Below, piece after piece: positions 275 to 49,169 of a stretch of 58,325 nt of DNA. The DNA is from an uncultured Chthoniobacteraceae bacterium (GTDB lineage: Bacteria; Verrucomicrobiota; Verrucomicrobiia; Chthoniobacterales; CAKUMP01): the NCBI GenBank assembly GCA_965365475.1, contig CBDUBV010000004.1:1-58325 (forward strand), read 5' to 3'. The translations under genes and the position numbers were made by a program. The notes under the pieces were generated by a model. It was not told where the DNA came from. It did no database searches and saw only the letters and a list, made by a program, of their open reading frames with translations. Position 1 is the stretch's first letter, and every line of letters begins with the position of its first letter.

Positions 275-1300
275 ATGAACCCAATAAAACGTGTCACCTT
301 GCGAGACATCGCCCGAGAGGCGGGGCTCACGGCGGCGGCCGTCTCAATGGCCTTGAAAAACCATCCACGCATCTCCAAGGCGACCATAACGAGAGTGCGC
401 CAGATCGCAGACCGTCTTGGTTATATCGAGAATCCGCTTCTTTCGCGGCTTATGACCGAGCTGCAACAGCAGAAAAAACGCCCCTACAGCGAGACGATCG
501 CTCTGCTGACAGCGTATGAAGATAGCACCGTCAAGCGGGAACCGTACCTGCGGGAGTTGTTTTGGGGCATTCATGATCGCAGCCGGGAACTTGGATACGG
601 GGTGGAGGAGTTTAACGCCCTAAGCCTAAAGGTAAGCGGTGCCAGACTGGCTGAGATTCTGATTGCTCGCGGCGTGCGGGGCGTGATCGTGGCACCGTTC
701 CGGGGCGGGCGGAGGCATATTTCATTGGATTTTACCAAGTTTGCAGCGGTAGCAGCTGGCGTTCGGACGCACCGTCCGCCGATAGATTGCGCAGTCACTG
801 ACCACTTTTATAATTTGTATAAACTAGCTCAACGGCTCTACCGTGCGGGGTATCGCCGCATGGCATTTGCCACCGAGCGCGAACGGCTGGCGCGCAACGA
901 ATTCCGCTGGCTGGGTGGATACCTGACCGCCCTTGCCAACATGAGCCATCGGCAAAAGCCCATGGTTTTTCAGCCAAGCGCGCCAGATGCTGCTGCTTTT
1001 CACAAATGGCTAAAGCGAGAGAAACCCGACGCGATCATATCGAGCATTCCGGCGGCACTGGTATGGCTGCGCGGGGCTGGTCTTTCAGTGCCAGAAGACA
1101 TGGGATACCTTGCTACGAGTTGCGGCCTGGGTATCTATCCGAGCGCGGTCTCGGGGACGGATGAAAGACCCTGCGAAGTCGGGCGCACCGCAGTGGACCT
1201 CCTGGCTTCGCAGCTTGCCCGCAATGAGCATGGGCTTCCGATGCTCGCCCATGCGACATTGGTAAAGGGCAATTGGGTGGATGGTGGAACGATTCGATGA
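275..1300 (+). CDS. LacI-family transcriptional regulator
   Basis: N-terminal HTH VTLRDIAREAGLTAAAVSMAL plus periplasmic-binding-protein-like effector domain; 341 aa. Confidence 0.95.
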   Translation: MNPIKRVTLRDIAREAGLTAAAVSMALKNHPRISKATITRVRQIADRLGYIENPLLSRLMTELQQQKKRPYSETIALLTAYEDSTVKREPYLRELFWGIHDRSRELGYGVEEFNALSLKVSGARLAEILIARGVRGVIVAPFRGGRRHISLDFTKFAAVAAGVRTHRPPIDCAVTDHFYNLYKLAQRLYRAGYRRMAFATERERLARNEFRWLGGYLTALANMSHRQKPMVFQPSAPDAAAFHKWLKREKPDAIISSIPAALVWLRGAGLSVPEDMGYLATSCGLGIYPSAVSGTDERPCEVGRTAVDLLASQLARNEHGLPMLAHATLVKGNWVDGGTIR

Positions 1301-48163: not shown

Positions 48164-48228
48164 CGCCGCCATCCTGCCCTCGGCGTCGTTGAGGTGGTTA
48201 TAAGGTGTTCGGATAACGCGAAGAAAGG

Positions 48229-48269
48229 AACCACAGATGGACACAGATGGACACAGATGGACACAGATG
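48229..48269 (+). repeat. Array A: 4 tandem copies of 10-mer ACACAGATGG, beginning AACCAC
   Basis: AA CCACAGATGG ACACAGATGG ACACAGATGG ACACAGATG read directly. Confidence 0.95.
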
Positions 48270-48320
48270 TTTGGAGGAGAGGAATAGGGGATGGCATCTG
48301 GGCAAAAACATCACAAAAAT

Positions 48321-48351
48321 CATCTGTGTAAATCTGTGTCCATCCGTGGTT
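48321..48351 (-). repeat. Array B: 3 inverted copies of the same 10-mer, ending GTGGTT
   Basis: CATCTGTGTA AATCTGTGTC CATCCGTGGT T; ends 13 nt before the GxxExxY ATG. Confidence 0.92.
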
Positions 48352-48364
48352 TAAATTTAAAACC

Positions 48365-48748
48365 ATGAACCTACGCGAAGATACGTTTTTATATAAGGAA
48401 GAGAGCCACCGAATTATTGGATGCGCGTTTGAAGTGCTGAACACGCTTGGCCACGGTTTGCTGGAGAAGCCGTATGAGAACGCATTGGTGGTTGAGTTTC
48501 AACAACAGGGAATCCCTTATTCCAAACAACCAAGATTTCCGGTGATCTATAAATCAGTCCATGTCGGTGAATATATTCCTGACCTGATTGTTTTTGATAA
48601 AATTATCGTGGATGCCAAAACCGTTGAAAAAATCGGAAACACCGAAAAAGCCCAAATGATCAACTACCTCAAAATCACAGGTCTGCGCGTCGGTCTGACC
48701 CTCAACTTCAAACATGCCAAACTCGAATGGGAACGCATCGCGCTGTAA
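48365..48748 (+). CDS. GxxExxY protein (PD-(D/E)xK nuclease-like fold)
   Basis: GLLEKPY = GxxExxY; PDLIVFDKIIVDAK = PD...(D/E)xK; QMINY = QxxxY; LNF; 127 aa. Confidence 0.93.
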   Translation: MNLREDTFLYKEESHRIIGCAFEVLNTLGHGLLEKPYENALVVEFQQQGIPYSKQPRFPVIYKSVHVGEYIPDLIVFDKIIVDAKTVEKIGNTEKAQMINYLKITGLRVGLTLNFKHAKLEWERIAL

Positions 48749-48751
48749 AAA

Positions 48752-48783
48752 CCATCTGTGTCCATCCGTGTCCATCTGTGGTT
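48752..48783 (-). repeat. Array C: 3 inverted copies of the 10-mer, ending GTGGTT
   Basis: CCATCTGTGT CCATCCGTGT CCATCTGTGG TT; separated from the stop codon by 3 nt; 31/32 complementary to 48229-48260. Confidence 0.95.
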
Positions 48784-48806
48784 AAAAATTGGGCGAGGAT
48801 ATTGAG

Positions 48807-49169
48807 ATGCATCTTACTTCCCTATTCTCACCTGCAGCAGCGGCCAGATCGTTGGCATGCGGCGCTGTCAGGATTTATCTCAACCAGACTTATACTAAAT
48901 TCGGCAAAATGACTGAACTACATATCGATAGTAGCACGCGCGAGATTCGCTTGAGTGCTGAACTCGTGGGCGAAGATCAACCGCTGGATGCCACGGTGCG
49001 CTACGACGTGGTGGAGGAAGGCGACAAGACTTTTATCGTCCCGCTGCAAGTGACCACCTCGCGCCAATGGCTCACCCTGCTTGCTGATGAAATGATTCGC
49101 AAACAACCGGTGCGCATCGAGGTGCCAGCCGGGATAGCGGCGACCGCATTGCGCATCCTTAAAATCTAA
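48807..49169 (+). CDS. Hypothetical protein
   Basis: Protein-like beta-rich 120-aa frame (FGKMTELHIDS...ELVGEDQP...TSRQWL); start ATG 48807 or TTG 48789. Confidence 0.7.
   Translation: MHLTSLFSPAAAARSLACGAVRIYLNQTYTKFGKMTELHIDSSTREIRLSAELVGEDQPLDATVRYDVVEEGDKTFIVPLQVTTSRQWLTLLADEMIRKQPVRIEVPAGIAATALRILKI

Follow-up and report, generated by a model that had tools for sequence, protein, structure and literature searches.

In this study, we analysed a 58,325-nt stretch of the genome of an uncultured Chthoniobacteraceae bacterium (contig CBDUBV010000004.1, assembly GCA_965365475.1; hereafter, the window) and found that its GxxExxY gene, the only one in this genome, is packaged between inverted arrays of a tandem 10-nt repeat. 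Array packaging is a property of the whole GxxExxY family. Gene and arrays form a single block in inheritance and in movement. This block is occasionally gained, lost or transferred, and it usually lies between the genes of an operon and in the direction of that operon. These results point to compact gene cassettes of an undescribed kind that are mobile on occasion.

As described in a first-pass annotation of the window, the unit is 555 bp long, begins with AACCAC, ends with GTGGTT and is bounded by a 32-nt terminal inverted repeat (48229-48260 versus 48752-48783) that is complementary at 31/32 positions (97%). Its arms consist of tandem 10-mers, and four ACACAGATGG-type copies were counted in the left arm (48229-48270). 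The annotation had placed the gene between two inverted arrays; both of these, the left array (L) and the right array (R), are real, but a third, middle array (M, 48318-48351) had been overlooked. The unit was also more AT-rich than its neighbours, as had been judged by eye, with a GC content of 0.41-0.46 versus 0.52-0.58 in the flanks and 0.564 in the genome, and it encodes, again in agreement with the annotation, no DDE, HUH or tyrosine/serine recombinase. Two units joined into a 20-mer, searched at up to three mismatches, matched six times in the window (0.02 matches expected from shuffles) and six times in the whole 3.45-Mb assembly (335 contigs), always at the cassette locus, while the exact 10-mer occurred six times in the assembly, three of them at this locus. 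Just upstream of the gene, L and M form a hairpin of 123 nt (-55.9 kcal/mol, z -8.0; 0/200 shuffles were as stable), which resembles gene-less hairpins found elsewhere. Together with their A-rich borders, M and R are direct repeats of 44 nt (84% identity) that bracket the gene.

The encoded 127-aa protein carries all the motifs that had been read in it, namely G31xxE34xxY37 (GLLEKPY), P72-D73...D83-A-K85 and Q97xxxY101. It matched PF13366 (PDDEXK_3) over profile positions 2-117 of 117 (E 7.7e-38, 129.9 bits, cut-off 22) and TIGR04256 (E 2e-40, 137.7 bits, cut-off 35). PF13366 was the only Pfam family detected in the open reading frame (ORF), which matched neither PF05635 nor a HUH/Y1 transposase. 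In an alignment of 33 family members, residues G29, G31, E34, Y37, E44, Q55, Y62, D73, K85, Q97 and F115 were invariant, and position 83 was acidic in all 33. The D...(D/E)xK...QxxxY arrangement is typical of DNA-acting nucleases of the RecB/Cas4/lambda-exonuclease group and provides a lead. An AlphaFold model of the protein (pLDDT 94) contained the alpha-beta-beta-beta-alpha-beta core elements in the expected order, and no sequence match to the protein was present in the PDB. Several family members of 250-390 aa (P0009, P0021, P0040, P0061 and others) contained two matched stretches each and are probably tandem-duplicated GxxExxY domains in one protein. The function of the family is given as "Unknown", with multiple transfers noted, in PMC3424549. 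No functional study mentioning GxxExxY was found in the searchable literature, which leaves out subscription journals, database family comments and supplements.

To score the association between gene and arrays, the 300-nt flanks on the two sides of the gene core were compared with each other and their best ungapped inverted match was taken, with a threshold of 14; in the control, the downstream flank was reversed and not complemented. Among GxxExxY loci of the same order (the 30 best-scoring loci and three others), 27/33 reached the threshold versus 0/33 controls. Loci from other phyla, which by record title include Planctomycetota, Acidobacteriota, Bacteroidota, Chloroflexota and Pseudomonadota, did so in 51/77 cases versus 1/77 controls (80 loci were fetched, of which three had flanks too short to be used). 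In two genomes, G078 (9/9) and G040 (7/7), every full-length gene scored at least 14 (16/16), with no control above 11; six fragmentary matches of 22 were left out of this set. Random positions in the window's own genome reached the threshold in 2/400 cases. An enrichment of inverted tandem arrays beside homologues, which had been named as a check of the original proposal, was thus observed both within the order and beyond it. Arrays were often translated as false N- or C-terminal tails of GxxExxY proteins, and where the downstream array seemed to be missing at first inspection, it was hidden within such an ORF extension. In one locus (L004, G002:C137, 1332-1960), four nested layers of ACCACTGATGGACACTGAT-type arms lay on each side of the gene at a spacing of about 28 nt; these nested arms would form a long interrupted stem.

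The arrays are built of 8-10-nt units with the core CRC-N-RA, run between outer ends of the form ACCRC...GYGGT and share the conserved outer end (A)ACC[A/G]C-N-[G/A]-A-G (ACCRC-N-R-A-G). Arms could be anchored on ACC[AG][CT] in 26/31 cases for the order and in 41/68 for the other phyla; position +6 was A in every anchored arm (26/26 and 41/41), and position +7 was G in 81-88%. Where the period of GxxExxY arrays was callable, it was 8, 9, 10 or 11 and never 7. Within one genome the unit differed from cassette to cassette (CACAGAGG, CGCGAAGGA, CGCAGATTA, CACAAAGGT, CACGAATGG and others), and another family member had a different, CACGAAGG-type unit. Across 113 cassettes, array similarity rose with protein identity (Spearman 0.37), and none of 999 Mantel permutations gave a correlation as high, bearing out the co-variation of protein and repeat that had been proposed as a second check. 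The correlation shows that gene and arrays travel together; taken alone, it fits linkage and co-adapted specificity alike.

The arrays might act in RNA, in the manner of the intervening sequences (IVS) of 23S rRNA. They would then base-pair once the operon is transcribed, leaving the cassette as a loop, and the stem would be cut by RNase III or would serve stabilisation or coupling, so that the insertion is harmless; the protein would be cargo and the arrays would not be its binding sites. In anatomy, the cassette equals the 23S rRNA IVS, which are described in PMC4990558 as 428-444 nt long, with a 28-bp terminal stem, an S23p ORF of about 120 aa in the loop and an RNase III cut in mid-stem. 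The IVS protein family (PF05635) is itself packaged in arrays outside rRNA, as detailed below. In the minimum-free-energy fold of 48200-48810 (-191 kcal/mol, z -4.9), L pairs with R. Between co-directional neighbours, GxxExxY cassettes shared the operon's direction in 19 cases and opposed it in one (15 and 3 cases for the PF05635 genes), neighbour orientation being called by a crude ORF rule. In genome G085, the cassette ORF (L183) overlaps both the ureB stop and the ureC start, with ATGA at each end. Hairpins of the cyanobacterial short tandemly repeated repetitive (STRR) sequences, which have 7-bp repeats and lie between operon genes, have been proposed to act in transcript stability or translational coupling (PMC2670836).

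If pairing were kept in the sense transcript, however, G:U-type mismatches in the arms should exceed A:C-type mismatches, and no such excess was seen on the sense strand: the counts were 30 versus 44 for GxxExxY loci of the order, 96 versus 84 for those of other phyla and 23 versus 39 for the PF05635 set. A stem also needs no tandem units, no conserved ACCRC-N-RAG end and no family-specific period, and 11/33 cassettes lie between convergent or divergent neighbours. We consider this explanation rather unlikely. Jointly and indirectly, the lack of a G:U excess, the conserved end motif and the family-specific period appear to favour sequence-specific recognition of DNA over a mere RNA stem.

That the unit is mobile, as the first-pass annotation had proposed, was supported by the presence of the same cassette in other genomic contexts. 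In a metagenomic locus (L234), a 401-nt block was 89.8% identical to window positions 48386-48786, and the adjoining left array matched as far as 48222 (L234 762-798 versus window 48258-48222, 94.6%); judged by this cassette, the conserved block extends from about 48222 to 48786. The flanks of L234 matched nothing in the window, and the homology stopped at the arrays. Its flanking ORFs were read by eye, with no family search run, as type I restriction-modification hsdS and hsdR. The L234 cassette lacks the segment comprising the hairpin loop and M, and its left array abuts codon 7. At about 567-1004 (reverse complement), the 10-mer unit itself provides an in-frame ATG (AGATGGAC) from which the protein would start MDTDEHR-FLYKEE, unlike the window copy, whose start codon is a separate ATG that follows the extra L-M hairpin. 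A decayed copy in G021, from another family of the order, was 80% identical to the window cassette and lay in a different context; the 5' part of the gene was gone and there was one internal deletion, while the arrays were kept. The M16 peptidase gene upstream of the window cassette aligned with G021 at only 64-69% over short stretches, against 80% for the cassette.

Filled and empty sites were found among members of one genus. Two genomes, G036 and G085, have a cassette of about 550 nt at the ureB|ureC junction, which is empty in G009 and G057 (ATGA stop/start overlap). The ureA|ureB junction holds a different cassette, whose 10-mer resembles that of the window, in G057 only, and is empty in G036, G009 and G085. 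At the window locus itself, a Pfam search confirmed the reported location between an M16 protease gene and an unrelated hypothetical gene, the latter a downstream 126-aa ORF with no Pfam match. Alignment of this junction in relatives, which had been suggested as a way to find an empty site, gave a partial answer. The gene was absent from the orthologous M16 locus in 19/19 relatives (L163-L181; best tblastn E 0.63), but the M16 orthologues were only 33-47% identical in amino acid sequence to that of the window and too distant for an empty site to be defined, so that gene absence alone is shown. In at least 10 of the 19 relatives, a conserved ORF of about 137 aa (M.EVQ...GEM.QRFIEFV.M...) follows the M16 gene within about 170 nt and is missing from the window (positions 48164-49169 were compared). 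The cassette therefore lies at a synteny break, this conserved neighbour being replaced by the cassette and the unrelated 126-aa ORF. One relative (L177, G007) had three tandem TCCAACCCTGAAG-like units just downstream of the M16 gene, where the window has the cassette.

Most cassettes sit in housekeeping operons, where they behave as long-term residents and not as active transposons, with protein and arrays under purifying selection. At conserved cassette sites (purQ|purL, ureB|ureC and a sugar operon), dN/dS was 0.04-0.19 wherever dS was estimable (dS 1-3), and many pairs were saturated. Across genera, the arrays at purQ|purL were more conserved than third codon positions. The view of a mobile and selfish system thus stood in so far as occasional transfer was seen, but persistence at fixed operon sites under strong purifying selection limits it. 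Because the block sits within the operon in the operon's direction, the cassette is probably expressed by read-through. Scanning of the window locus for promoters and terminators gave nothing above background; at the arrays no terminator-like site was found, counts equalled the shuffle level, and runs of A, not of T, followed the arrays. In L183 (G085), L023, L024, L034, L035 and L037, the cassette ORF starts at an ATGA overlap with the stop of the upstream gene, and translated array tails occur in such ORFs (for example MNHQDTK... and ...SRLGGSTL).

These data also bear on the view that the cassette is a resident module, host-serving or self-regulating, that no longer moves. Its protein would be a nuclease or binding protein with specificity for structure or sequence that the host retains, for example for the processing of hairpins or cruciforms, the arrays would be operator-like autoregulatory sites, and the present scatter would reflect old transfers and losses. 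The low dN/dS with saturated dS at the three operon sites, the conservation of arrays across genera, the lack of recent duplicates in G078, the low copy number and the very large size of the family (12,879 PF13366 clusters at 50% identity with E <=1e-3, and 2,941 at 1e-10) agree with this view. It is at odds with the 90%-identical cassette in an unrelated context where homology ends at the arrays, with the filled and empty sites among congeners, with the existence of decayed copies and gene-less hairpins, and with the patchy presence of PF13366 genes, which occurred in 116/151 genomes of the order at 0-14 matches per genome. We think it quite improbable that residence alone explains the cassette.

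The reading that we favour, and to which we give about an even chance, is that the arrays provide multi-site elements in cis for the nuclease encoded between them, within a compact cassette that moves rarely and then resides. The arrays would be sequence-specific sites in DNA for the cassette's own protein. At each end, several protomers may occupy the repeated units, much as they do at iterons or multi-site transposon ends. The nuclease may make its cuts at the arrays, next to them, or at cruciforms or hairpins extruded by them. Such cuts would favour the copying of the block or its insertion, by a process resembling homing or cut-and-paste and without target-site duplication; the version in the window would carry the extra L-M hairpin before the gene as an addition to this plan.

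Several results weigh against this reading, and gene-less hairpins account for a number of them. The metagenome was scanned with a 31-nt IUPAC pattern of the window array, at least 120 stretches matched, and 80 loci containing 82 arrays were taken; the counts below are among the matches listed. Gene-less hairpins (47) outnumbered gene cassettes (4, with 48-90% amino acid identity to the window's protein), no partner was found for 24 arrays, and seven lay at contig ends. The 82 arrays occupied 78 different flank contexts with a locus GC content of 0.41-0.69, a spread that speaks for mobility and not against it. The gene-less hairpins were 64-266 nt long with the ends AACCAC...GTGGTT. No target-site duplication was present in 41/44 hairpins and no clear target motif was apparent; at the ends of the window cassette, likewise, no duplication was visible. 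The hairpin loops were mutually unrelated, and since only 1/29 kept a trace of the gene (C-terminal codons), most gene-less hairpins are not demonstrably deletion derivatives. Gene remnants as a general origin of the loops were rejected on the same count. At least two gene-less derivatives, the G021 copy and one hairpin loop, did keep gene remnants, showing that in at least some cases internal deletion can reduce the cassette to a gene-less hairpin in which the arrays survive. A palindromic target was also considered, given that flank complementarity of at least 3 nt occurred in 6/44 hairpins versus 4.7% expected; this signal was weak and was not adopted.

Copy number and fold count against the favoured reading as well. 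Arrays of the window type occurred in 25/151 genomes of the order, with only 1-9 arm matches each (the reversed control pattern gave one match in all), and hairpins were present in G006, a 91% complete genome in which no PF13366 gene was found. No recent paralogues were detected, the copies in G078 sharing at most 74% nucleotide identity. With an array that is unique in its genome and no more than nine arm matches per genome among the 151, the earlier analogy to elements of repetitive extragenic palindromes (REP) and REP-associated tyrosine transposases (RAYT) failed. The nearest solved folds in a Foldseek search (lambda exonuclease, Cas4, Hjc and restriction-endonuclease-like folds) were weak matches, all with E >1e-3 and TM of 0.3-0.54. 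In G078, a separate small inverted-repeat element with arms ...CGTGGAGCG.GCCTCGCTTGCGAGGCC... was shared at 93-95% between L199:103-334 and L204:2632-2819 and is unrelated to the tandem arrays.

A further point against the favoured reading came from PF05635 genes, which encode four-helix-bundle proteins. We searched the window's own genome for tandem arrays (period 7-11) that have a partner in inverted orientation no more than 1.2 kb away. Four sites were obtained: the GxxExxY locus, two PF05635 loci with 7-nt arrays and one gene-less hairpin. The PF05635 genes (L213, G000:C114:8759-9203, and L212, G000:C145:4803-5356) lie in inverted arrays of the GAAGAGT type and the CGAACTT type, respectively. 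The hairpin (L214, G000:C1:41607-41782) is 175 nt long and consists of inverted arrays of the 10-mer CGCAGATTTT, ending ...GCGGTTT; no cognate gene for its arrays was found in the window's genome. In the order as a whole, 22/30 PF05635 loci scored at least 14 versus 0/30 controls. The arm period was 7 in 21/21 callable arms, and the GxxExxY unit core was absent from PF05635 arms. As genes that are not nucleases sit in the same packaging with 7-nt arrays, this architecture can arise and be maintained without a nuclease.

The same arrangement was seen on cyanobacterial plasmids, where 3/3 loci opened had a four-helix-bundle gene between inverted heptamer arrays: AGTAAAA in Anabaena cylindrica (L215), AATTCGC in Nostoc punctiforme (L216) and AATCCCC/AATCGTA in Planktothrix agardhii (L217). 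By look, these heptamer arrays resemble cyanobacterial STRR repeats. Identical four-helix-bundle genes on three plasmids of Nostoc flagelliforme were considered as a case of transposition and rejected, because they are segmental duplications that share neighbouring genes. A broader reading, which we offer tentatively and regard as doubtful, would join GxxExxY with its 8-10-nt arrays and the four-helix-bundle genes with their 7-nt arrays into one new class, in which a protein of about 125 aa recognises tandem repeats at both ends of its gene. On this reading, GxxExxY would rank as the smallest known nuclease that achieves DNA mobility or homing by itself, with neither target duplication nor the help of a DDE, HUH or serine/tyrosine enzyme, and both the 23S rRNA IVS and the STRR hairpins would represent relics or special cases of the class.

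Two of the three cyanobacterial plasmid cassettes are lodged in defence loci, one between cas2 and cas1 and the other between drmD and pglX. Together with the small nuclease without a partner gene and the L234 cassette between the presumed hsdS and hsdR, they raise the idea of an addiction or defence-type selfish gene, in which cells or invaders without some protecting feature would be harmed by the nuclease and the arrays would serve as decoys or immunity sites. The protein, however, matched no PADLOC or PHROGs family, the family was found in 0/50,697 phage records and in only 7/72,556 plasmid records, and the preference for housekeeping operons does not suit such a role. We judge it very improbable.

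The features of the window cassette are listed in Table 1. In Rfam, the locus gave only generic hairpin matches far below the gathering scores.

Table 1. Features of the GxxExxY cassette in the window.
Feature	Position	Strand	Remarks
A/G-rich border AGAAAGG	48222..48228		Aligns with the 90%-identical L234 cassette; probable outer left limit of the conserved block
Left array L	48229..48270		AACCACAGATGG followed by three more ACACAGATGG-type 10-mers; outer end AACCAC
Loop of the upstream L-M hairpin	48271..48317		Purine-rich GGAGGAGAGG stretch; missing from the L234 cassette
Middle array M	48318..48351		Degenerate inverted copy of L (31 nt, 90% complementary)
GxxExxY gene	48365..48748	+	127 aa; PF13366 / TIGR04256; D73, D83-x-K85, Q97xxxY101; predicted minimal PD-(D/E)xK fold
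Right array R	48750..48783		Three inverted 10-mers ending GTGGTT; 31/32 complementary to L; direct repeat of M
AAA border	48784..48786		Last bases aligning with the L234 cassette

These findings give two large families without a known function, PF13366 and the 23S-rRNA-IVS/four-helix-bundle family, a concrete partner in cis, namely their own flanking repeat array. They also join three puzzles: the nature of rRNA IVS, the nature of STRR-type operon hairpins and the scatter of small genes through operons in many phyla. If the protein acts on the arrays, the cassette would be a new and very compact module of protein-DNA recognition and mobility; if it does not, the arrays would be a general means by which foreign genes can settle in operons that remain unbroken. 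The results are also useful for annotation, where arrays are mistaken for N- or C-terminal protein extensions. No paper tying GxxExxY or four-helix-bundle genes to flanking tandem arrays was found in a search that did not reach subscription journals and supplements, and the link between gene and array may have been noticed elsewhere before.

The cassette was compared with known systems. The 23S rRNA IVS of Leptospira, Coxiella and others resemble it in size (about 0.45-0.55 kb), in a terminal stem of about 30 bp, in a single ORF of about 120 aa and in a GC content below that of the host. They occur patchily, and their horizontal transfer has been proposed (PMC4990558). The cassette has the stem that defines an IVS, a 32-nt inverted repeat (31/32) around its 127-aa ORF. 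It differs from IVS in lying between protein-coding genes and not in helix 25 or 45 of 23S rRNA, in encoding a PF13366 PD-(D/E)xK protein and not the S23p/four-helix bundle of PF05635, and in having arms of tandem 10-mers with a conserved end motif whose mismatch spectrum shows no sign of selection for RNA pairing. STRR hairpins (PMC2670836) resemble the gene-less hairpins described here in that short tandem repeats are inverted and lie between operon genes. The GxxExxY arrays differ from them in their 8-10-nt units, against 7 bp, and in their motif. No link of STRR to any gene was found in the searchable papers.

REP/REPIN-RAYT systems comprise a HUH/Y1 transposase and hundreds of repeat copies, each repeat being one imperfect palindrome. 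The cassette shares with them a single small gene between cognate inverted repeats, gene-less hairpins elsewhere, vertical upkeep and purifying selection; it differs in lacking a HUH/Y1 transposase, in its 1-9 arm matches per genome and in its tandem short units. The MITEs (miniature inverted-repeat transposable elements) and their autonomous parents, as well as IS200/IS605-type elements, are similar in their terminal inverted repeats, in the excess of gene-less forms (47 versus 4 here) and in the lack of target duplication. The cassette is unlike MITEs and insertion sequences (IS) in having no DDE, HUH or serine/tyrosine enzyme, in the unrelated loops of its gene-less forms and in its very low copy number, and the target-site duplication that accompanies inverted repeats in classical IS and MITEs is missing from 41/44 hairpins.

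Tn7 and Mu have multi-site transposon ends, and TnsA sets a precedent for a restriction-endonuclease-fold protein that acts at such ends; these systems also need a DDE transposase. Several short direct repeats at each end, inverted between the ends, are common to them and to the cassette, whereas in the cassette the nuclease is the only gene and no DDE transposase is present. Free-standing homing endonuclease genes resemble the cassette as small nuclease genes between operon genes at sites variably filled among relatives, but have no counterpart to the flanking inverted tandem arrays. Among PD-(D/E)xK proteins, PDDEXK_2 is given as a "putative transposase" in PMC3424549. On the features tested, the definitions of IVS, REP/RAYT and IS/MITE each fail, and the cassette is akin to selfish cassettes of the IVS or STRR-hairpin kind.

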